A stretch of 64,000 nt of DNA from Cirrosporium novae-zelandiae (GCA_026023565.1 JAPETS010000045.1:62001-126000); one strand, 5' to 3'. Shown: positions 3,287 to 16,435, counted from the first letter of the stretch. The notes: generated by a model from the sequence alone, not told the origin. A program made the numbers and translations.

Positions 3287-3393
3287 TGGACATTCTGGGA
3301 ATTGAACCCAGGACCTTTCCCAAATCAGATTTATAACGGACGAGAGCGCTCACAAAATGCGAAGGGAAAATCATACCCCTAGACCAAATGCCC
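3287..3393 (-). tRNA. tRNA-Ala(CGC) with an intron of about 35 nt
   Basis: Minus strand reads GGGCATTTGGTCTAGGGGTATGATTTTCCCTTCGCA-[intron]-TGGGAAAGGTCCTGGGTTCAATTCCCAGAATGTCCA. Acceptor stem has the G3:U70 alanine identity pair; anticodon stem TTCCC/GGGAA; TTCAA T-loop; T-runs downstream. Confidence 0.93.
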
Positions 3394-4187: not shown

Positions 4188-6386
4188 CTATGGCAACATT
4201 CTGCTTGGCCCGTGTGAGCCCATTGCGACTTGAATCCTTCTTGCAATTTCCAGCAAAAGTCCCTCCCTGAAAGCTGGTCCAACCACTGAAATTCCGAACG
4301 GAAGTCCTCCAGCCGTACCAGCGGGAATGGCAATAGCTGCAAGGTCTAACACATTCACAGCACTAGCAAATGCACCTAATTCCAAATTTGGTCCGATCGG
4401 ATCCTCTTCAACTTCCTTTATCGTTGGGTGCCTCGGCGCAGTTGGTACAATCAAAACATCGCATTTATCGAACTCCTTTTCCATTATCCGGGTAAGTCGC
4501 TGTGCCTCGTATAAATCATTGAAAGCAGTGCTAGCCGTGAAACTAGAAGCTGAGCTTAGAACTTTGCGAGTTACTGGAAGGAGTGCTGATTTGTTTTCTT
4601 CTTTCTCTATAAACGTACCAAGGGTGGCCATTCTTTCAGCCACAAACGCACCCTTGTACACCAAATCAGAGGCAGCAAGATAGGCGTCAAAATTGAAGTC
4701 AGTTTGATCAGCATGTGGGAGTTGACGAAGTGCAGCTTTGACCTTTTCGAATTGTAAATGGTATTCAGAGCAAAGCTTTTCCTTCAGTACGTTATCCGGA
4801 GGTACAGAGAAGGTGAATTTACTCTCCTCATGCAACAACGCCCTATTTGAAAGGGCGGTTAGCGGCCGAGAAGCTCGAGAATATGAATCTTCTGGATCAA
4901 ATGATTTTGCGATAAGCCACGCCGCTTTTGCGCTAACTAATGTTTTTGCGAATATAGACACACAGTCTAAAGTTTTGCATGCGGGAACCACTCCTAGAGC
5001 TGATATAGTACCTTTTGTTGGCTTCAAACCCACAATTCCATTGAATCCGGCTGGTATACGACCAGAGCCGGCTGTATCGGTACCTAATGCAAAAGAAACC
5101 TGACCGAGAGCAACAGCATTTGCAGACCCTGAGCTAGATCCGCCGGAAACACGGGTTCTATCATAAACCGAGTAGCATGCACCATATGGTGACCTTGTAC
5201 CGACTAAACCGGTTGCGAACTGGTCAAGGTTTGTTTTACCTATGATAATTGCACCAGCTCTCACAAGTTTGTCGACAACGAACGCACTTTTAGCAGATTT
5301 ATAAGAGAAGGCCGGGCAACCCGCTGTAGTATTCATTCCAACGACATCGATATTGTCTTTGATAGCAAAGGGAATACCATAGAGAGGAAGATTGAGGTTT
5401 CGGTGCTTTTCAAGGTCTTCAGCTCTAGAAAAAGCTTCCTCACCAGCCAGGCTAATCCAGATAGATGGATGGTCTGCAGTATTTGAGCTTATCTTTTCAA
5501 AGGCTTTTTGAATCACTGTCACAGGGGAGAGACCGGCTGCATACTCCTTCTTCAGAACGTCAATATCCATGGATCCATCCCATTCTGACACTTTGGTGCT
5601 CTTTCTTCTTGTCGAGAAGGATGCCAAGGCCGGTAAAAGTGCCTTAGATGTACTCACGAAACCGAAGAGACCTTCAGAGAAGCGAATCATGTCCAGGGAT
5701 GCTGTTTTGAATGTGGACACGAATCCATCTGTACAATCACTTAGAATACAGGCATCAAATCCCCTATCATTTGCTTCCCTGACAGTTGTTGTCACGCAAC
5801 ATTCAACTGTTACCCCTGCAACGATGATATGGGTAATTCCTCGGTCTACTAGTTGTTCATGTAGTCCTGTGGAGAAGAAACTTCCTTTTCCAGGCTTGTC
5901 AATCACAATCTCATCAACCAAAGGCTGCAATTCATCGATTATATCATGCCCATATTCATTTCTGGTAAGAAGTCGACCCATTGGGCCTTCATCACCGATG
6001 ACGGCACTGTGACGGGTCTTTGGGGCGCGAGCTTGCCGGATAAGTTTTGGTGTCGGACAATCGCGAAGATCCGGCCTATGTCCTTCGCGGGTGTGAATAA
6101 CTTGTAGGCCGCATTCTCGAAAGGCCTTCAAGATAGCCAAGGTGGGCTTAATAGTAGCTTGAACTGTTTCCACACCTGCATCTCCAGCTTGGATGTACCC
6201 AAATCCATCTTTTAGTAAAAAGTCTCGCTGCATGTCAATGATGACGAGCGCCACACGTTGTGGATGGAACTTGAATGTGTAAGGGTTTGCATCAAAGGAT
6301 ATATAGCTATCATCTTTCATAAAATAGCTATCTTGAGTCGAAAGTAACGGAGATGATGCGGGAGAAGCTATTGCAACGGGAGTCAT
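4188..6386 (-). CDS. Intronless fusion: isochorismatase-family cysteine hydrolase (biuret/triuret hydrolase-like) plus allophanate hydrolase (amidase signature), about 732 aa
   Basis: N-domain has IIDMQRDF, HTREGH, IDKPGKGSF, AGVTVECCV and REANDRG (Asp-Lys-Cys triad). C-domain has GIPFAIKDNID, GKTNLDQFATGLVGTRSPYG, GGSSSGS and GTDTAGSGRIPA (AtzF/Dur1,2-type). First in-frame ATG is at 6386; the ORF track starts at a non-ATG codon. Confidence 0.9.
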   Translation of the reverse strand: MTPVAIASPASSPLLSTQDSYFMKDDSYISFDANPYTFKFHPQRVALVIIDMQRDFLLKDGFGYIQAGDAGVETVQATIKPTLAILKAFRECGLQVIHTREGHRPDLRDCPTPKLIRQARAPKTRHSAVIGDEGPMGRLLTRNEYGHDIIDELQPLVDEIVIDKPGKGSFFSTGLHEQLVDRGITHIIVAGVTVECCVTTTVREANDRGFDACILSDCTDGFVSTFKTASLDMIRFSEGLFGFVSTSKALLPALASFSTRRKSTKVSEWDGSMDIDVLKKEYAAGLSPVTVIQKAFEKISSNTADHPSIWISLAGEEAFSRAEDLEKHRNLNLPLYGIPFAIKDNIDVVGMNTTAGCPAFSYKSAKSAFVVDKLVRAGAIIIGKTNLDQFATGLVGTRSPYGACYSVYDRTRVSGGSSSGSANAVALGQVSFALGTDTAGSGRIPAGFNGIVGLKPTKGTISALGVVPACKTLDCVSIFAKTLVSAKAAWLIAKSFDPEDSYSRASRPLTALSNRALLHEESKFTFSVPPDNVLKEKLCSEYHLQFEKVKAALRQLPHADQTDFNFDAYLAASDLVYKGAFVAERMATLGTFIEKEENKSALLPVTRKVLSSASSFTASTAFNDLYEAQRLTRIMEKEFDKCDVLIVPTAPRHPTIKEVEEDPIGPNLELGAFASAVNVLDLAAIAIPAGTAGGLPFGISVVGPAFREGLLLEIARRIQVAMGSHGPSRMLP

Positions 6387-6525
6387 GTTTTTAAATTTTG
6401 GAATGAAGCGCAAACAGTGCACAGAAAAGAGGACAAATAGCAGAGTATGAAAGCTGTATGGAATATTGCTGACTCTTAGCTTGTCTAAACTATTATTGAG
6501 GAATACTTATTCGTTTTGGAGGAGA

Positions 6526-6699
6526 TGATAGGAATTGTTTGGACAATTGCACAAGATTGCCCGCGGTCATCAAATAAGCTCATGCTGTTGATAAGATTAG
6601 ACCCTGTAAGCCCCACATTTCGGGTTATCGCCCCGTGCGCCCGTCGGATCGGGCTGCTGCAGGCCCCATCTAATCATGGCCGCGGCGATTTCGTTATCA
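6526..6699. promoter_or_regulatory. Cluster of HGATAR (AreA/Nit2-type) sites and CCGCGG motifs in the divergent promoter of the hydrolase fusion and the NCS1 permease
   Basis: TGATAG 6526, TGATAA 6589, TTATCG 6625, TTATCA 6694; CCGCGG at 6561 and 6680. Confidence 0.55.
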
Positions 6700-6934
6700 G
6701 CATAGCTAGCTAAAACCTATGAAAGTTTAAGCCATTGTTTTGATTGAAAATGTTTCCATTCCAAGTAGTATTTAGACTCCAGGGTTCAGAGGAACCAGTT
6801 CGTACGGTGACCAAAGAGGAATCCCAATTGTTTTATTTGTCTTTTCAATCGTGAGTTCTGAACATCTTAATTAAGGAGTGTTTGGAGCCCAGGAACTACA
6901 GTTAAAAGAAACGGTCCACTTACAAACTATCACT

Positions 6935-8703
6935 ATGACCCAAAAGCAGATCTCGGAGAGGGTTGAGAATATTAAACAGGATATATATGTGAAGGCAACG
7001 TCCCGAGATGCTTGGGTGTTACCAAAACAGCCAACAACTTTTGCACCGCCGGGGACTTGGACGAATATCGACAATGATGTGACACCGCTACATCGACGAA
7101 CCTGGGGTCGATGGACAATTATCGGCTACTGGCTGTCAGATATACTGAGTGCTCAGTCATGGGAGGGAGCATCGACCATAATCTCCGTTGGATTAACCTA
7201 TCGAGAAGCCATCCTATGTCTGATCATGGGTACGGTTATTGTTGCTATCCCTATGTGTCTGAACGGTGCGATCGGAGCTAGGCTGCGTGTCCCCTACCCC
7301 ATTGCTTCCAGGTCAAGCTTTGGTTATTATTTCTCCCGCGTGCCAGTCGTTATTCGAATGATTACTGCTCTCTTCTGGCATGCAATTCAAACATATGCTG
7401 GAGCGACTGCCATGACTCAGGTCATTCGTGCAATTTGGCCATCGTATCTGAATATCCCCAACCACCTTCCCGCGAGTGCTGGTATTACGACACAAGAGAT
7501 GGTCTCACATTTCCTGTTCTGGACCGTTCAATTCCCCGTTCTTCTTACACCACCACACAAGCTCAAATGGTTTTTTGTGTTCAAGGCATTTTTTGTTATT
7601 TCTGCCGCTGTGGCAACGGTTATCGGTATGTGCAGTCTTGCTGGAGGGAGCGGAGATATCTGGGATCAGACGACAAAATATCACGGCTCCGAAAAGTCTT
7701 GGCTCATCATGGCATATATGTCCAGCATGACAGGTTTGTTTTTCTGTGAACGATTACATTGAATCGAGTATCTGACCAATGTTTTAGGTGGATGGGCAAC
7801 AATGGCTACTAACATCCCAGATTATACCCGTTACCTTAAGCAGGAAAGATCAATCTGGTTACAAGCAGCGCTTGTACCCTTCATTTGCACGTTTATTGGA
7901 ATTCTCGGGATCATAGCAACTAGTGCAAGCAAAGTTGTCTATGGAGAGTATATCTGGGACCCTCTCACACTTGCAAGCCATTGGGATGGTCCGGGTGGTC
8001 GAGCTGCGGCATTCTTTGTTGGAGTAGCATGGTGTGTCGCGCAGATAGGGGTTAACGTTTCGGCGAATGTTATCTCTTGCGCAAACGATATGACAAGCTT
8101 ATGCCCCAAATATATCAATATCCGGCGAGGAGCTATTCTAACTACCATTATCGTGAGTTCTCATTTCTTTCTCCAGAATGCTCGTGGATTAACTAGTATT
8201 TATACGAATAGGGAGGTTGGGTGATGGTTCCTTGGAAAATCGTACATTCGGCAGAAAGTCTAATAAATTTCATGGGTGCCCTATCAATTTTCCTTGCACC
8301 TATTGCTGGCATCTTGGTGGCAGACTTCTGGATTGTCAAACATCAAGCAATCGATATTCCATCGTTATATCGCCCTCATGCAAGATATCACTACCAGAAG
8401 GGCTGCAACTGGCGCGCAGCAATTTCGCTAATCATCTCACTGGGACCGAATATGCCCGGATTGGTCAATGCTGTCAACGGGGATATCAACATTGGTGGAG
8501 CATCGAAAATATATAGCTTCAATTACTTGTGGGGTTTCACGAGCGCTTTTGTTATTTATATTGTCTCCAGTTATGTATCCCCAGCCAAAGAAACGTTGAT
8601 CAAGGAATCGATTCACGACAGCGAAGAACTTTCTGAGGAAGGGGAGGAAAGACCGGAGCAGTACGTTGTGAAGACAGATATTGAGAAGACGGGACAGGTG
8701 TAG
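6935..8703 (+). CDS. NCS1-family (Fur4/Dal4-like) nucleobase/allantoin permease, 3 exons (6935-7733, 7788-8152, 8212-8703)
   Basis: WTNIDNDVTP..RRTW, SRSSFG, WATMATNIPDYTRY, N..ANVIS..ND...L.PKYINIRRG, PWK and multiple hydrophobic segments. Introns GTTTGT..TAG and GTGAGT..TAG keep the frame. Confidence 0.92.
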
Positions 8704-9658
8704 ATAAAATATACCTAATTTGTTAATTGAACTAATGATGGAGCATCGGATTGAATATATTATCCAGCTAGGATATTCCTCCTCATTGTGTTGATAAAGC
8801 AAATGCCAGGATACAATAGACACCTGATAAACTCTTATCAGCTCTGCGGAATGCGTACATAAATTAAGCTCACCAATACTCAAATTCGGATTTTCATCTA
8901 TGAATCTAAATCCATCCTAGCAACTCTTGTTCAAGGCTCAGCTGCTATGAATGGCATTAGTAACCCTAATAAAAGAACAAGGACAAAAGTAATGCCCTCT
9001 CAAGTGGCTAGTAAGTAAGATATTGAGATTCCATGAAAATCACTATGAGTAACGCTGAAAATCGAAAATAGTTGAGAGATATATACCTAAATTCCTTGAC
9101 TTATTAAAATAGTGGTAAAAACTTAAGTGGGAGTAATAGTGTGGACTTGTTCTTCTAATCACCAATGGGCATCTTATGCATAGGAAGTGCGGATGGAAGA
9201 AGGCATTGTGGCTAAAGGGTTTAATTAAGCTTTGATTAAAATATAGTGGTGACGGTCGTGTTGCGAGATTGATTGGATAGCCAAGATAGGTTGATGCCCT
9301 AGGCCTTGAAATTTCTACCCCTTATCATATGGGAAAGCCACACCAACATGTTACGTAGTACTACTATAGAAAAAAGTAAACTTATGATATACCCTAGATA
9401 GTAGAGTAAGAATGGAATTCTCCATTTCATTCAAGTTGAGGACCTGAGGGAAGTTATAGGTGAAGTTCAAATTAAGAAATTGGTCTAATATCCAATATAT
9501 ATCTATAGGAGAGGATGAATAGAGGGGAACAATCCTAGAGCAACAACAGATAGAATGTAGCTTGTAAAATGCTCTAATCTCACACAGTCTCATTCTGTTC
9601 ACTCTCTAAATTAGGAATTTGATACAAGCATGTACCATAATCCTTATACCATCCCTCT

Positions 9659-10094
9659 TTAATCAACTGTCACATCCTTGCTGGTGTCTAGCTCTTCGGA
9701 TCTTCGAAGGTCCATTGGCTTGGCCAATAGAGGTATCACATACGGATCGAATGTTTTCCAATATGGGTTGTTTAGGTGGTATTGTTGACTCTGGGTGAAA
9801 ATGTTAGCAATTTCACTGAGCAACGCTTCCAACCCTAGTTCCTCGCCTCGCGCTTTTATGTATACATGCATGCTTTGACAGTGAATAAAGAGATGTGCGA
9901 CATACACTTTCTTGTTCATAGCGTTCAACAATTGTAAATTCTCTCGAGTCGAATACGTCCTGCATGACAAACCACGAGATAGTCTCTTTATCTTTGGAAT
10001 AGACACGAGATGCTTCAATGAGTTTATTCTTAAGCTTGCGAATGGATTCGGGGTCTGACTTTGCAGTCATATGGACGGTGATTGTATAGACCAT
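9659..10094 (-). CDS. Small ABM / dimeric alpha-beta-barrel protein, about 106 aa, 2 exons (10094-9906, 9790-9659)
   Basis: Spliced product MVYTITVH...DKETISWFVMQD...FTIVERYEQES|SQQYHLNNPYWKTFDPYV fits the ABM pattern (F.ivE.Y.......H...P). Intron GTATGT...GCTAAC...CAG. Confidence 0.8.
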
Positions 10095-10460
10095 CTTGAT
10101 GAAGCAATTGGATTCAATTGACCCGAGGGAATAGTGAAAGATTTGAATTAGATGTAAGAAACTGTGGATAGATGCTGTAGGGAAGAAGGCAATTCCACGG
10201 TATTTAATGGAATATGTTGAGGGGACCCGCAGTAGACGGTCGTCACCTCATGTTACTTCTACTCCCTACCGTTCTCCCATCTCTCGTTCTCCACTTTGAC
10301 CTCAAGTCATGCTAGACACGTGCCAGACACGTGCTAGAGTAATATTTAGAGTTTTGGGTTGCTCGTACGTGCCCATTGTACCTTTGCACTGTTTGCATCA
10401 CGATCCCAACCTCAAGTCATTTAGACCATGCTAATGAGCTCCTGGGCTTTTTCTTCACAG

Positions 10461-10493
10461 ATGTCCATTGAACGTTGGAGCTATGCGCAATGA
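10461..10493 (+). promoter_or_regulatory. Upstream ORF (MSIERWSYAQ*) whose stop overlaps the TF start codon
   Basis: ATG at 10461 directly follows a putative intron acceptor (CACAG, 10460). Stop TGA 10491-10493 overlaps the main ATG 10490-10492. Confidence 0.45.
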
Positions 10494-12579
10494 GAGCTTG
10501 TGATGTTTGTCGCAAAAGGAAGCAAAGATGCGTTACACAAGAAGGCGCATCATCTTGTACTACTTGCCAAATGATTGGCAACTCGGAATGCACTTTCCTA
10601 CACCCTCCTCCACCCAAACGCCGAGTGATTGCTGGAAGTAGTAATGGCCCATCCATCGGAACCAAACAACTGGCTACTGGGAAGAGTGGATCGAAAATCA
10701 ATGTTTCGGGTCCATCTCAAAGCTTCTCAAGGTCTTCTCGCCTCGAGCCCAGCCCGGAAGCTCCCCCGCCCGCCTTCGATTATCCCCAAGAATCGATTTT
10801 AACGAAAACCCTGGGCCTAGAGAAGAGTCGATTCTCAGAATATGTTGGTCAAGGGGGAGAACAAGATGTGAACATTCTTTACGGGCAAACTGAAAATGGC
10901 AACAGTTTGTCAACTACATCACGTCCGTTGCGGTGGGTACATGAGGCCGCCCTTTTCCAAATGACACCAGACAATGCCTATTCGGGGGTTCTCGATAAAT
11001 CTGAAAGACCCGAGGATGTTAAAGTCGAGGATATTGAACAACTTGCCCATCCGCATGGGCCAGCACTGATAAAATTATATTTCAGGATTTGTCATCCATC
11101 TTTCCCCATTTTACACAAAGAAGTGTTTGTTGAAAAATACAATCGTACTTATCGTGAAATAACTCCACACTTACTTGCAGCAGTATATGCCCTCGCGGCT
11201 AGATGGTGGTCTTACGATACCAACCTTCTTCTACAAAAACGGCTGGATGAAGCTGCACTTGTTCTCATTGCTCATCGAGCAGTACAAGAATCAATGCATC
11301 GGCCGAGATTAAATACGGTTCAAGCCGGACTTCTTTTGCTACAACGACATCGAAATCCTCTTTTCACCGACAATTCTTGGACATGGTCATTTACAGCCTC
11401 CTTAATTGGACTAGGGCAACATCTCGGCCTTCATCTCGATTGTTCTCACTGGAATATACCAGAATGGGAAAAAGGCTTGAGGAAACGCCTGGCATGGGCC
11501 CTATTCACCCAAGATGCCTTCTCAGCAATGATATTAGGGCGCCCATGTTTGATTTCACTAATTGACTGGGATGTGAAGATGCTGACGCCTAATGATTTCT
11601 CAGAGAGCTCAGTAGATGAGGATTCTAGTGAGAATGCTGGTAGTGCTAGTATAGAGGATGGAAAGACACTATTTATCGAAACGGTTAAGCTTGGAGAAAT
11701 TGCTTCCCGGGTCTTGCGTGAATTGTACTCTACCAAAGCAATGGTAGAAATCACTGAACCTCAGGAGGTTCTTGCATGCGCAAAACCCCTTGGAACTCAA
11801 TTGGCCGATCTACTCAGGAATTTGCCTTCAATACTACGGATGGATAATTTACAGCCAGGTCGATTATGTGCAAATGGGTATTACCATCTTGCCCATCAAG
11901 CCACAACTGTGGCGTTACACCGCCGACTCTTATGGTCAATATCGCGCTCAACTTCTGTGGACTCTCAGTTTGTCCAATTCTTACGTGGGACCCAATTGCA
12001 GCGGGCGAGGAGTATTGTGAAATTCATTTCCAGTCTCAAATCAGAACATATGGAGGCCTTTTGGTTTTTCGCTGCGGGAGGTTGTGCGACTATGCTGGGT
12101 AGCTTCTTGGGTCTATTGCGTGTGACTAGTGAAACGCCTGAAGAATCTGAAGAACTAAAGAAGCTAATGCGAGAGTTCGAGTGGCAGCTGAGAATGAAGG
12201 CAAAGATGGGTGAATGGGTTTCGTATACACTAACTCGCCTAAGAGTTCTGGGATGGGATCACTGGAAGGACGTGGAGCCAGATGTGGTAGAATCACAGAG
12301 TGATAATAAACCATCCCTTCGTGAGCCAATACAAAAGCAAATTCTAGTTGTCGCCAACCCGGATCTAAATAGGGAGGTCAATCACGAGATTACAAATTTT
12401 GCTTCGTCAAATACTATGGCCTGGACACCAGTTGATTTTGAGGGCTTCTTTGAAAATTTGTCAGGAATAGACGATGGCTTAGTGGATTTTACACTTTCGC
12501 CAATGATGCCAGGTATATCCAAGTGTGATTCCGCTGTTTGACTTACTAAGTGTGTTCTAACGCGTATTTAGGTGATTGA
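10490..12579 (+). CDS. Zn(II)2Cys6 transcription factor with fungal-specific TF domain, Dal81/TamA-like
   Basis: CDVCRKRKQRC-x8-CTTC-x7-C cluster; LYFRICHPSFPILHK and LGLHLDCSHWNIPEWEKGLRKRLAWALF. Probable last intron 12513-12571 gives the C-terminus ...MPGD*. Confidence 0.9.
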
Positions 12580-13119
12580 ATGGCAAACATTGACCAAGCA
12601 TGATGTATGACAGAGCAGTGTATTCTGTGTCGAAACTGACAGCAGTTTAGGACGAGTTCAAACCAAACAAACATTGCCTGAGGGCCTCCTGCGGTGCGGA
12701 TCTATACTGATAAGGCCTCGGCCGCAATCGTGGATAGGGACTCGAATCCTGCTGTTTTTTTTTCACGGAAGCGGCCTGCTCTAGCCTCATAAGACCATTT
12801 CATGCAGAGCGGAACATAGGGGGCCTCCGAACCATGGGGAAAGATGACAATATTCGCTCCAGCACTACCTAAGTTCCCTTGACTAGATTTACTCTACATG
12901 CCGACCAATAGGGAATTCCCATCTAAAACTTGTGATTAAGTTTCGATAAGATTGGCAGCCACGGATAATCCCGAATAGGCCCGCGGGATTCGTCCCACCT
13001 CGGACCGACGCGCTACTCTAACGCTATCATATACACTTCAAAGTCAACTTCTTTCTTTTTGCATTTGATTTATATTTATATTCTGGATAAACGCAATTTG
13101 GACATCAGGCACAAACATT

Positions 13120-14241
13120 ATGGCATTCATAAGTTTCTCGGGAAATCAATACAACGTTGTCTCGGAGAAAGCGAAAGCGGCTAGCTTCGACGAGATCCCC
13201 CTCATTGATCTTTCCTTACCCAAAGATGAAATTGTTAAACGTGTTCGTGATGCATGTACTCGAGTCGGATTCATGTATATCCAGAACCACAATGTCCCTC
13301 AAGAAGTGATTGATAGCGTGTTTAAGAGTGGGAAAGAATTCTTTAGTCTTGGCAGGAAAGCAAAGGAAGCTGTGCACTTTAAAAATGTTAAGTCCTTCAA
13401 AGGCTATGAAAGCATGGGAGGTGTATACACCGATGAAACCAAGAAACCGGACTTGAATGAAGCCTTCAGCTGGGGCTATGCTGAAGAGATGGATTTCCTT
13501 CACCCTTCTCCAGCTTCCTCCCCATCGACAACAAAACATTCTGACCTCGAGTTCATGCATGGTGCAAATCAGTGGCCATCCTCCTTACCAGGGCTTAAAC
13601 CCGATGTCAGTACCTACTTTTCACACATTCTTATTCTCGCTCGTCGTCTCATCCGCCTCTTCGCACTCGCACTTAACCTCCCCGAGACTTACTTCGACTC
13701 AATGATGGCACGACCTGGCACCATGGGGAAAATGTTACATTATCCCACCCAGTCGCCTACATCCCAGGTTGCAGAGGCTCTCGGGATTGGCGCCCACACC
13801 GATATTGAGTGCTTTACGATTTTATGTCAGGACAACAGTGTGCCTGGGTTGCAAGTGCTGAACCAAAAAGGCGAATGGATCCTTGCACCCCCAAAACCGG
13901 GAACCTTTGTCATCAATATCGGGGATATGCTTGCGCGGTGGTCAAACGACACGTTCCTCTCGACGGTGCACCGTGTTCTTAATATCACAGGTCAGGAACG
14001 ATATTCACTTCCTGTATTCATGGGACCAAGCTATGAAACCATTCTCAAGCCATTGGAGACGTGTGTGAGCGAGGAGAGACCAGCAAGGTATGAACCCATA
14101 AGTGCAGGGTTGTATGTCTGGAAGCGATTGGCTGTGTCGAGGCTAAATAAAGAGGAATTTGAGAAGCAGTTGGCACAGTTTGAAGAAGCCAAGGTTGATG
14201 TTCATGTGCATGGGGCAGACGTAGTGGAGGTTGTGGGATAA
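13120..14241 (+). CDS. 2-oxoglutarate/Fe(II) dioxygenase (IPNS/DIOX_N type), intronless
   Basis: IPLIDLS..AC..VGFMYI.NH N-domain; HTD...H iron triad (GAHTDIE, STVHRV); RxS 2OG-binding motif (ERYS); NIGDML.RWSND. Confidence 0.93.
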   Translation: MAFISFSGNQYNVVSEKAKAASFDEIPLIDLSLPKDEIVKRVRDACTRVGFMYIQNHNVPQEVIDSVFKSGKEFFSLGRKAKEAVHFKNVKSFKGYESMGGVYTDETKKPDLNEAFSWGYAEEMDFLHPSPASSPSTTKHSDLEFMHGANQWPSSLPGLKPDVSTYFSHILILARRLIRLFALALNLPETYFDSMMARPGTMGKMLHYPTQSPTSQVAEALGIGAHTDIECFTILCQDNSVPGLQVLNQKGEWILAPPKPGTFVINIGDMLARWSNDTFLSTVHRVLNITGQERYSLPVFMGPSYETILKPLETCVSEERPARYEPISAGLYVWKRLAVSRLNKEEFEKQLAQFEEAKVDVHVHGADVVEVVG

Positions 14242-14585: not shown

Positions 14586-16435
14586 ATGATAAAAGCAATA
14601 TTCTTCAGTAAATTCGACACCAAAGAAGGTGTGCCCGTATATACATCTGTTCCCATTGGAAATATTTTACTGATCCTTTCACGCAGGCCCCAAAGTCATC
14701 CACCAGGTTCCACCCAACAGCATCGTCCCCGCGCCCACCACACCACAATCCTCTCCCCCACCCCGCCCATTGATATCGTTCCCTACCGTTCGCTCCTACA
14801 TTATCCCACCGCAAGAGTTCTGCGGCCGGCCCCTTTCAATTTGCAACTCTCGACATCGTATTCTTGGGCATCCAATCTGCCTCTCCAACCCTCGGTACTC
14901 GCGAAACGAATTCATATTTAATTTCTGTGTAGTAGTAAAAGAGGATGAGGTTCGAGAATGGGGATGCTACGCGCGGGTCGTGAGCATGTTGGCAGAGCTG
15001 ATGGGAGGGCTAGAAGAAGTGGGGGGTTATTTGAGCAGAGACGAAGCCGTGGGAGAAGGAAGGGAAAATAAAGGAAGGGTATTTGCCATGTGTGAGATGC
15101 TGATGGAAGACCTGAATAATTATTCCGAGTGTATGATTCCTATAGGTATATATGTCCTGTCGAATGATAGATACAATATTTCCACTAACTGCCATCGCGA
15201 CAGACGATTCAAATACCCTCAACACCAAACTATTTCCTCTTCTTCCTCCACCTCCACAAATACCCCCATACAGTGTACCGCTTCTCCTAATCCAGCCATC
15301 GCTTCTCTCATCTTCCACGCTCCAGCCCTCTCTATCCCCGCCCCTGACCCCCTCCGCACTTTCCCCGGACCTCCTTCTCCTCTTACTTCTCCCCCACATC
15401 AACGGCATAAACTCTGTCGCTCGAATATCCCGTCTCGCAAATGTAAGCCTAAAAATAACAACCGAGGTCCTCCGCTGCCTACTCTGGCAGCATGCAATCA
15501 TGCTCCTCGACATCTTCAGTTTTGGTGCCGTGTACGCCTGCACCGAAGCAATCGGGGAATTGATCTCCACGGCCATGGATCCAGCAACGTCTACCACCAC
15601 CAATCCCACAGTCAACGCCACCAATACAACCTCCTTCAACAGTCCCACAACAACAACAACAACAACAACGCCCCAACAACAGCCAACTACTCCCACTGAC
15701 GGGCCGTCCCCGTCCACAACCCTCAACAGCATGATCCACGAATGCGCCGCCTACGTTCACCTACCCAATTCTTCCCCGGACATAAATCCTATCCCCGCCC
15801 ACCGACTCTGCACGCTCTTCCTTTCCCTCTCTCAAGGGAAATCTGTCCGAAGCTGGTACATTGAGAACGAATCTCTCCTAACCGACATTGATGTACGGCG
15901 CTTCCTAACCTTCGGTGTCATCAAAGGCATCATCTACCGCGTGCGCAAATACGCTGTATTAGTAGGTCCCAGCGGCGAAATTCTCAAAACAAGAAGGAAA
16001 AAAGGCTCCTTCTTCGGCTCTGTCACCACGACTGCGGGCGGAGGTGGTGGAGGAGAAAGAAAAAAAGATAGAGATATCCCAGACGAAGCCCACCATCACC
16101 TACAACCGCAACAGCAACCATACCAACATCAACAGCATACTCCAAACTCCCAACACCAATACCAATACCACCATCACCACCACCACCAACAACAACAACA
16201 ACAACAACAACCACAATATCAACAACATCAGCACCAAGAAGACCCACAACCCCCATCCCACAACTCCCTAAGCAACTCCTTTTCTGTCGATGGCCCCGGT
16301 ATCGATCTGAGTAGGTACCTAGATGGTAAACATCCGTTTGACCAAATCAGCACTGAGACGGGGCTTACGGAGCGCGAGATACTTAGGGAATTGAGACGGT
16401 GGGGGGGCGGGGAAGTGCAGATTTTTTGTCGGTGA
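14586..16435 (+). CDS. NPR2: Nitrogen permease regulator 2 (SEACIT/GATOR1 subunit), 3 exons (14586-14628, 14687-15145, 15204-16435)
   Basis: MIKAIFFSKFDTKEG|PKVIHQVP, YSRNEFIFNFC, EDLNNYSECMIPI|DDSNTLNTKLFP, IDVRRFLTFGVIKGIIYRV, LDGKHPFDQI. Confidence 0.92.
15647..15669 (+). repeat. (ACA)n trinucleotide repeat encoding poly-Thr in NPR2
   Basis: acaacaacaacaacaacaacaac seen directly. Confidence 0.9.
16166..16230 (+). repeat. (CAC)/(CAA) repeats encoding poly-His/poly-Gln in NPR2
   Basis: HHHHHHQQQQQQQQ tract in the NPR2 frame. Confidence 0.9.

Follow-up and report, generated by a model that had tools for sequence, protein, structure and literature searches.

What pathway is encoded by five neighbouring genes in the fungus Cirrosporium novae-zelandiae, and on what compound does it act? 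The genes occupy positions 4188..14241 of a stretch of 64,000 nucleotides (GCA_026023565.1, JAPETS010000045.1:62001-126000; hereafter the window). They specify a bifunctional hydrolase, in which an isochorismatase-like domain is fused to an allophanate hydrolase (AH) domain, an NCS1 permease, a small protein that is probably of the ABM fold, a Zn2Cys6 transcription factor and an Fe(II)/2-oxoglutarate (2OG) dioxygenase. We favour, with moderate confidence, a nitrogen-catabolic cluster with a three-gene core conserved in fungi, acting on an imported nucleobase- or ureide-like heterocycle.

Conserved linkage of the permease, dioxygenase and fusion genes

The fusion, the 2OG dioxygenase and the NCS1 permease are conserved together in fungi. 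In four named species, all three genes are found within four consecutive locus tags. These are Capronia coronata (NCS1 A1O1_09259, dioxygenase 09260, fusion 09262), Talaromyces atroroseus (NCS1 UA08_01344, dioxygenase 01345, fusion 01347), Paecilomyces lecythidis (NCS1 004242, dioxygenase 004241, fusion 004239) and Oleoguttula mirabilis (NCS1 LTR36_007315, dioxygenase 007316, fusion 007317). A single gene separates the dioxygenase from the fusion in the first three. Pairs of core genes were also observed: the permease and the fusion lie one tag apart in Recurvomyces (006389 and 006391), the dioxygenase and the permease are adjacent in Zasmidium cellare (002933 and 002934), and the same two genes form a pair in Cercospora kikuchii (000036100 and 000036200).

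A second test asked which relatives lie on contigs of equal length, and covered 118 fusion homologues (the 120 listed, less the window's own protein and one entry lacking a length). Fifteen of these 118 were on a contig equal in length to that of a top-120 dioxygenase or NCS1 match, and five further contig sizes were common to dioxygenase and NCS1 matches only. Other fungi, too, carry these genes as a group, and the arrangement is thus more than chance. The earlier note on this DNA, made before any database search, had set synteny across fungal genomes as a test of the cluster. The outcome is positive for the fusion, dioxygenase and permease by locus tags and by equal-length contigs. Membership of the regulator is supported by one relative, its closest, P0361 (66% identity), which is found on a contig of 25,317 bases, the same length as those carrying relatives of the fusion (P0006), the dioxygenase (P0131) and the permease (P0242).

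Domains and catalytic residues of the fusion hydrolase

The fusion (4188..6386, minus strand) is encoded by a single exon and has 732 amino acids. Pfam Isochorismatase matches residues 46-246 (5e-36) and Amidase residues 310-712 (5e-81), and both domains are present in all 120 homologues listed, which databases name allophanate hydrolase, amidase or GatA. The N-terminal domain (5616..6305, minus strand; residues 28-257) is of the biuret/triuret hydrolase kind. Its best solved relatives are TrtA (6XIX, 8e-60) and BiuH (6AZO, 9e-55), with RutB matching at only 1e-18; by these scores it is far closer to TrtA and BiuH than to RutB or other enzymes of the isochorismatase family. Its Asp/Lys/Cys triad aligns with D24/K129/C162 of TrtA and D36/K142/C175 of BiuH, the active-site loop before the catalytic Cys reads GVTVECC, and the equivalents of TrtA F29, E72 and K132 are retained in an alignment against the residues described in PMC7948467. 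Other TrtA consensus residues give a mixed picture: F35 and E160 are kept, A134 is replaced by Ser as in BiuH, and Y187, I205 and N41 have become Phe, Leu and, in a gapped loop, Gly, respectively.

The C-terminal, amidase-signature domain (4221..5570, minus strand; residues 273-722) matches AtzF (4CP8, 3e-102), the Granulibacter enzyme GbAH (4GYR, 3e-100) and the Kluyveromyces lactis enzyme KlAH (8e-89). It exceeds the cut-off of the AH subfamily model PRK08186 (533 versus 487 bits; profile positions 6-448 of 600 covered) and falls below that of the full-length equivalog TIGR02713 (491.6 versus 511 bits). The KDNID, GGSSSGS and GTDTAGSGR segments of the amidase signature, which carry the Lys-cisSer-Ser triad, are conserved relative to 4CP8 and 4GYR. 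In addition, YKGAFVAER of the fusion aligns with YGGPWVAER of 4GYR and YAGPWVAER of 4CP8. We take this Y-x7-R motif to be the carboxylate-binding pair for allophanate, Tyr299/Arg307 of GbAH. Pfam found no AH C-terminal domain (AH_C, PF21986) in the fusion. A 50 kDa amidase fragment of AtzF is reported to retain activity (PMC3944691), and therefore loss of AH_C need not abolish the function of the fusion. In its alignments with solved AHs, this domain has the look of a true allophanate hydrolase. The allophanate hydrolase proposed earlier for this gene thus holds as regards a BiuH/TrtA-type domain joined to an AH amidase domain, with the AH C-terminal domain missing.

Permease, dioxygenase and accessory genes

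The permease gene (join(6935..7733, 7788..8152, 8212..8703), plus strand) has three exons and encodes 551 amino acids identical to database protein P0241, which is listed under a metagenome-assembled genome of C. novae-zelandiae. Pfam Transp_cyt_pur matches all three exons and covers profile positions 3-438 of 440. Its closest relatives are named allantoin, uracil or uridine permease and, judged by these names, it is an NCS1 protein of the uracil/allantoin (Fur-like) kind, in keeping with the nucleobase- or allantoin-type importer that had been suggested.

The dioxygenase gene (13120..14241, plus strand) encodes 373 amino acids with DIOX_N (3e-25) and 2OG-FeII_Oxy (6e-25), each above its cut-off. 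In an alignment of 14 sequences, the HxD...H iron triad (H226, D228, H284) and the 2OG-binding R294 and S296 are invariant. The enzyme is of the IPNS/EFE-like family. Its top PDB match, 9OVH, was rejected as a functional lead because it is a laboratory reconstruction of an ancestral ethylene-forming enzyme (EFE), under a title by which automatic annotation could be misled. The closest natural solved relative is PaIPNS (6JYV, 1e-36), a protein of unknown function (PMC12329707), and a thymine dioxygenase (5C3P) matches moderately well (5e-34).

In bacteria, the closest relatives of this enzyme (35-45% identity) were found in 80 loci, 26 of which also contain a Bmp homologue. In 25 of the 28 best loci (L081-L108), a Bmp/PnrA-type ATP-binding cassette (ABC) transporter set adjoins the dioxygenase, and a LysR gene is present in about 11. 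The bacterial module consists of the dioxygenase, a binding protein, two permeases and a double ATPase, often with LysR and with no other conserved enzyme. Given the NCS1 linkage in fungi and the Bmp neighbours in bacteria, an importer of nucleobase or nucleoside type accompanies the dioxygenase in both kingdoms. Bmp-type transporters are also reported to accompany triuret/biuret clusters in nitrifiers (PMC12625717), and we found them in two bacterial clusters of triuret/biuret type, L017 (3287..11845) and L009 (10019..20556), which encode AHs with AH_C. The second of these also has a PucR-type regulator of purine catabolism.

The small gene (9659..10094, minus strand; exons 9907..10094 and 9659..9790) encodes 106 amino acids, and its intron, read from the sequence, has the typical fungal signals GTATGT...CTAAC...CAG. 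Its neighbours in a language-model atlas were all ABM families (score 0.90), and it is probably an ABM-fold protein. Exon 1 had no NCBIfam match, and its sole PDB match was a de novo designed protein at E=1.5. TrtB was considered as an ABM protein and rejected: in L017 and L009, the small gene just before the TrtA-like isochorismatase gene encodes a cupin, and in L017 it lies between both isochorismatase-like genes.

The candidate pathway regulator (10490..12541, plus strand; 683 amino acids) carries Zn_clus (22.6 bits, cut-off 21; 1.2e-4) and Fungal_trans (114 bits, cut-off 23; 7e-33). It has few close relatives, with identities of 66, 65, 49 and 47% followed by values of at most 40%.

Proposed pathway

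The analysis shows which domains the proteins have, that their catalytic residues are kept, and that the permease, dioxygenase and fusion genes are linked in other fungi. From this we infer the order in which the proteins act, what reaction the dioxygenase catalyses, what the ABM-like protein and the regulator do, and the kind of substrate. First, the Fur-type permease would import the heterocycle, a compound resembling a nucleobase or ureide. Oxidation by the Fe(II)/2OG dioxygenase would follow, most plausibly as hydroxylation of a C-H beside nitrogen, upon which the ring or side chain would open and become hydrolytically labile, possibly with the assistance of the small ABM-like protein. In a third step, the BiuH/TrtA-like cysteine hydrolase domain would attack the carbamoyl-amide of a biuret-like acyl-urea, releasing ammonia and an N-carboxylate (allophanate or a close analogue), which the fused AH domain would finally cleave to ammonia and carbon dioxide. 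The Zn2Cys6 protein would be the pathway-specific regulator.

In a more specific version, which we regard as rather unlikely, biuret-type compounds would owe their missing biological origin to the 2OG dioxygenase. The enzyme would oxidise the single C-H of an imported purine-derived ureide, such as allantoin, allantoate or a related hydantoin, to give a product that rearranges or decays, possibly with the aid of the ABM-like protein, to a biuret-like acyl-urea, which the fusion would convert fully to ammonia. The route could also pass through a triazine such as oxonate or 5-azauracil. If true, this version would define a route for the oxidative breakdown of ureides that needs neither urease nor allantoicase, and would account for the wide distribution of biuret and triuret hydrolases, for which no natural source of substrate is known.

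The substrate pocket and alternative readings

Several observations weigh against the pathway as proposed, and they concern the hydrolase pocket, the small gene, the bacterial relatives, the linkage and the promoters. We start with the pocket. In TrtA (Q202) and BiuH (Q215), one Gln coordinates biuret and triuret and has been proposed as a determinant of specificity (PMC7948467). In the window's fusion this residue is Glu, within FSEGLFG as compared with AQGGIVG of TrtA. Members of the bacterial clusters retain the Gln (MQGGVFG, AQGGIFG) and also carry the Asp/Ser and Glu/Ala markers that are specific to BiuH and TrtA, and this co-occurrence supports our mapping of the position. Moreover, the N-terminal domain scores 227 bits on the NCBIfam BiuH equivalog NF050097, for which the cut-off is 370 and on which the BiuH proteins of the searched bacterial genomes reach 405-432. 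Because of the replaced Gln and the score below the cut-off, we file the domain as BiuH/TrtA-like and not as a biuret hydrolase. For the same two reasons, allophanate as an intermediate is read from the fusion partner alone.

The Gln-to-Glu change suggests that plain biuret or triuret is not the true intermediate. It might instead be an acyl-urea formed when a hydantoin or pyrimidine ring opens, or a compound resembling guanylurea. The earlier note had pictured a nitrogen-rich heterocycle or ureide stripped of its nitrogen via allophanate. The enzyme families and the kind of permease speak for this part, while plain biuret or triuret as the intermediate is not established, given the Glu and the 227 of 370 bits.

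Of the best 120 fungal homologues listed, 52 have Gln at this position, 42 have Asp and 26 have Glu. We built a tree of 119 of them (FastTree, midpoint-rooted), omitting the over-long P0016, and obtained three groups. Clade A, which includes the window's protein, has 28 sequences (19 Glu and 9 Asp; support 0.95), clade B consists of 33 sequences that all have Asp (33/33; support 1.0), and clade C comprises 58 sequences, 52 with Gln and 6 with Glu. These six cases within the Gln clade indicate that the residue switch is recurrent. The omitted P0016, from Talaromyces marneffei, is a 1277-residue model with about 570 residues beyond the 700 of the fusion. The extra part had no Pfam family and no match in the window, and P0016 is probably an over-long model that has merged a neighbouring gene.

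Would plain biuret or triuret utilisation be enough to explain the locus? The permease would then import these compounds, which could stem from such sources as oxidised urate or fertiliser, the fusion would convert them to ammonia by itself, and the dioxygenase and the ABM-like protein would be bystanders or act on another substrate. TrtA and BiuH being the best solved relatives of the N-terminal domain, and its junction to an AH domain that keeps Y-x7-R, are consistent with this. The effect of the pocket residue cuts both ways, as TrtA Q202E gained tenfold in biuret activity, making an acidic residue compatible with biuret, and lost more than 95% of its triuret activity (PMC7948467). The BiuH score below the cut-off argues against it, as does the position of the dioxygenase, which is found between or beside the permease and the fusion in four fungi. 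Furthermore, the contig-length test divides by pocket type: 15 of the 66 fusions with Asp or Glu, and none of the 52 with Gln, share a contig size with a dioxygenase or permease match (Fisher p=1e-4), with equal length being only a proxy for the same contig. The dioxygenase is linked in this test to the Asp/Glu-type fusions and not to the Gln-type. We consider plain biuret or triuret utilisation unlikely.

A Gln-type fusion was found in a fungal-looking metagenome contig (L003, 704..6336), where it lies divergent to a distant NCS1 gene (29-42% identity to that of the window), an arrangement that fits plain biuret or triuret utilisation; neither a dioxygenase nor a regulator was found in that stretch. 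Gln-type fusions may have a permease partner of their own. Beyond the fusion/NCS1 pair lie NLR-like NACHT/ankyrin genes. A scan of metagenomes for relatives of the fusion had returned 587, and the best 80 of these 587 were mostly bacterial AHs, L003 being the only fungal-looking one among them.

The acidic residue could instead bind an amidinium group, as would be expected in a pathway of guanylurea or guanidino type. The dioxygenase would free a guanylurea-like compound, in the way that EFE and homoarginine-6-hydroxylase free guanidine, and the N-terminal domain would be similar to a guanylurea hydrolase. Glu or Asp in place of Gln in 68 of the 120 fungal fusions listed agrees with this, and so do the membership of the dioxygenase in the IPNS/EFE-like group (PMC12329707) and the guanylurea hydrolases themselves, which are isochorismatase-like, are related to BiuH and TrtA, and show very little activity on biuret (PMC9800807). 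On the other hand, the Fur-type NCS1 and Bmp transporters indicate a nucleobase- or ureide-like cargo and not amino-acid-like guanidines, the AH domain resembles a genuine allophanate hydrolase, and by Pfam the cluster has neither a carboxyguanidine deiminase nor a guanidine carboxylase. This pathway seems to us quite improbable.

Returning to the proposed oxidation and hydrolysis of an imported heterocycle, the small gene gives a weak signal: Pfam ABM (PF03992), searched with exon 1 alone, matched at E=0.12 and 13 bits, below the cut-off of 23.1. For the bacterial dioxygenases, an association with biuH, trtA or atzF in operons was not borne out, as hydrolase- or NCS1-like genes within 10 kb gave weak matches in only 4 of the 80 loci. 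At the level of whole genomes, BiuH exceeded the NCBI cut-off in 12 of the 20 genomes behind the best dioxygenase loci, and in 15 of 27 top-tier dioxygenase genomes once those of two taxonomic samples were included. In the class-level sample of 201 genomes, BiuH was present in 8, including all three with a dioxygenase of at least 500 bits and 5 of the other 198. In the order-level sample of 151 genomes, it was present in 27, and the contrast (3/7 versus 24/144) was not significant, at an estimated p of roughly 0.1. Since the contrast shrinks in this way, much of the class-level enrichment reflects shared ancestry and lifestyle, and we regard the co-occurrence of dioxygenase and BiuH in bacteria as suggestive.

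The linkage in fungi also has its exceptions. In Hebeloma, Drechslerella and Phlyctema, relatives of the fusion and the dioxygenase are on contigs of different size, and in Curvularia kusanoi, a counter-example, the locus tags of the cluster genes are 18 apart. Finally, a comparison of the promoters (CGG pairs, HGATAR and shared k-mers) revealed no convincing motif in common. The divergent promoter region common to the fusion and the permease (6387..6934, 548 bp, not assigned to a strand) contains five HGATAR sites (9.1/kb, compared with 4.1/kb in the window) and two CCGCGG, which is not statistically compelling. The lack of a common promoter motif would suit the view that the genes share no pathway and are neighbours by descent or chance, serving unrelated processes, as would the differences in gene order between the window and Talaromyces, Paecilomyces and Capronia. 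Nevertheless, the linkage of the three families persists across very different fungal groups despite this rearrangement, and only two of the three clades of fusions show it. We therefore regard the absence of a common pathway as highly improbable.

Genomic context of the cluster

The earlier note had described five adjacent genes in two divergent pairs, lying between a tRNA and housekeeping genes. Open reading frames, Pfam matches and both flanks agree with this description at the coordinates given above. The fusion and the permease form the first divergent pair (spacer 548 bp), and the ABM-like gene and the regulator the second (spacer 395 bp). Upstream, a tRNA gene with a 38-nucleotide intron in the anticodon loop lies at 3287..3393 on the minus strand. 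It was detected by a sensitive Rfam run (46.6 bits, gathering score 29), and missed by ARAGORN in bacterial mode and by a fast Rfam run at the gathering threshold. As both of these runs missed the intron-bearing gene, a negative result for tRNAs in a fungal window calls for a search in the sensitive mode.

Directly 3' of the cluster is NPR2 (nitrogen permease regulator 2; 14586..16435, plus strand; Pfam 5.7e-51), which apparently contains introns and whose C-terminal half has long low-complexity runs rich in Gln, His, Asn and Thr. The position of NPR2 next to a nitrogen-catabolic cluster may be a coincidence.

Comparison with known pathways

The nearest known system is the bacterial triuret/biuret pathway of Herbaspirillum, Rhizobium and nitrifiers (TrtA, TrtB, BiuH, AtzF and a Bmp-type ABC transporter), which ends with the same two enzyme families, as described in PMC7948467 and PMC12625717. 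In both cases an isochorismatase-like cysteine hydrolase would be followed by an amidase-signature AH, and an importer of nucleobase or nucleoside type is adjacent, as seen in L017 and L009. In contrast to the bacterial pathway, the C. novae-zelandiae cluster has both enzymes in one polypeptide that lacks AH_C (PF21986), one hydrolase domain instead of two paralogues, no cupin (TrtB), and Glu in place of the key Gln, and it adds a 2OG dioxygenase, an ABM-like protein and a Zn2Cys6 regulator.

Fungal Dur1,2 and the stand-alone AH of K. lactis (4ISS, 8e-89; 5I8I, 4e-88) have a homologous AH amidase domain, and their reaction presumably likewise ends in ammonia and carbon dioxide. Unlike these systems, the cluster lacks a urea carboxylase, biotin domains and the AH C domain. 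With a cysteine hydrolase as fusion partner, allophanate would arise by hydrolysis and not by the ATP-dependent carboxylation of urea. The Rut pathway of Escherichia coli (RutA-G) is similar in that a nucleobase ring is opened oxidatively, an isochorismatase-family amidohydrolase (RutB) acts on the ureido product, and a transporter belongs to the system. However, RutB is a distant match (1e-18, compared with 8e-60 for TrtA), the oxygenase here is an Fe/2OG enzyme and not flavin-dependent, and equivalents of RutC, RutD, RutE and RutF are absent. Thymine-7-hydroxylase (T7H), an Fe/2OG enzyme of fungal nucleobase metabolism, has the same DIOX_N/2OG-FeII_Oxy architecture and is only a moderate match (5C3P, 5e-34). 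XanA, another fungal Fe/2OG enzyme acting on nucleobases, belongs to a different 2OG family. To our knowledge, neither T7H nor XanA is clustered with a BiuH/AH fusion.

The other fungal routes that had to be considered are the uricase-allantoin, URC, reductive PYD, Dur1,2 and hxn nicotinate pathways. Their signature families (uricase/allantoinase, URC1, DPYD/hydantoinase, urea carboxylase and HxnS) are all absent from the Pfam matches of the five genes, which bears out the view that the gene set is unlike known fungal pathways. The further suggestion that the route might be undescribed fits our search of the open literature (Creative Commons papers in PMC, and bioRxiv), which yielded no account of either the fusion or the cluster, although trtA-like genes have been noted in some fungi (PMC7948467). 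Within that literature, the end-game enzymes are familiar, while the fused architecture, the altered pocket and the front end made of an oxygenase and a permease are not described.

For enzymologists, the split between Gln-type and Asp/Glu-type clades offers a natural specificity switch. The cluster physically joins the biuret-type/allophanate hydrolase with an oxygenase and an importer of nucleobase type, in a combination that recurs across many fungi. It thereby provides a concrete candidate for the upstream step that can be put to the test, and with it a lead on where biuret-like compounds come from in nature, and it points to a fungal nitrogen-scavenging route that matches no textbook pathway of purine or pyrimidine catabolism.

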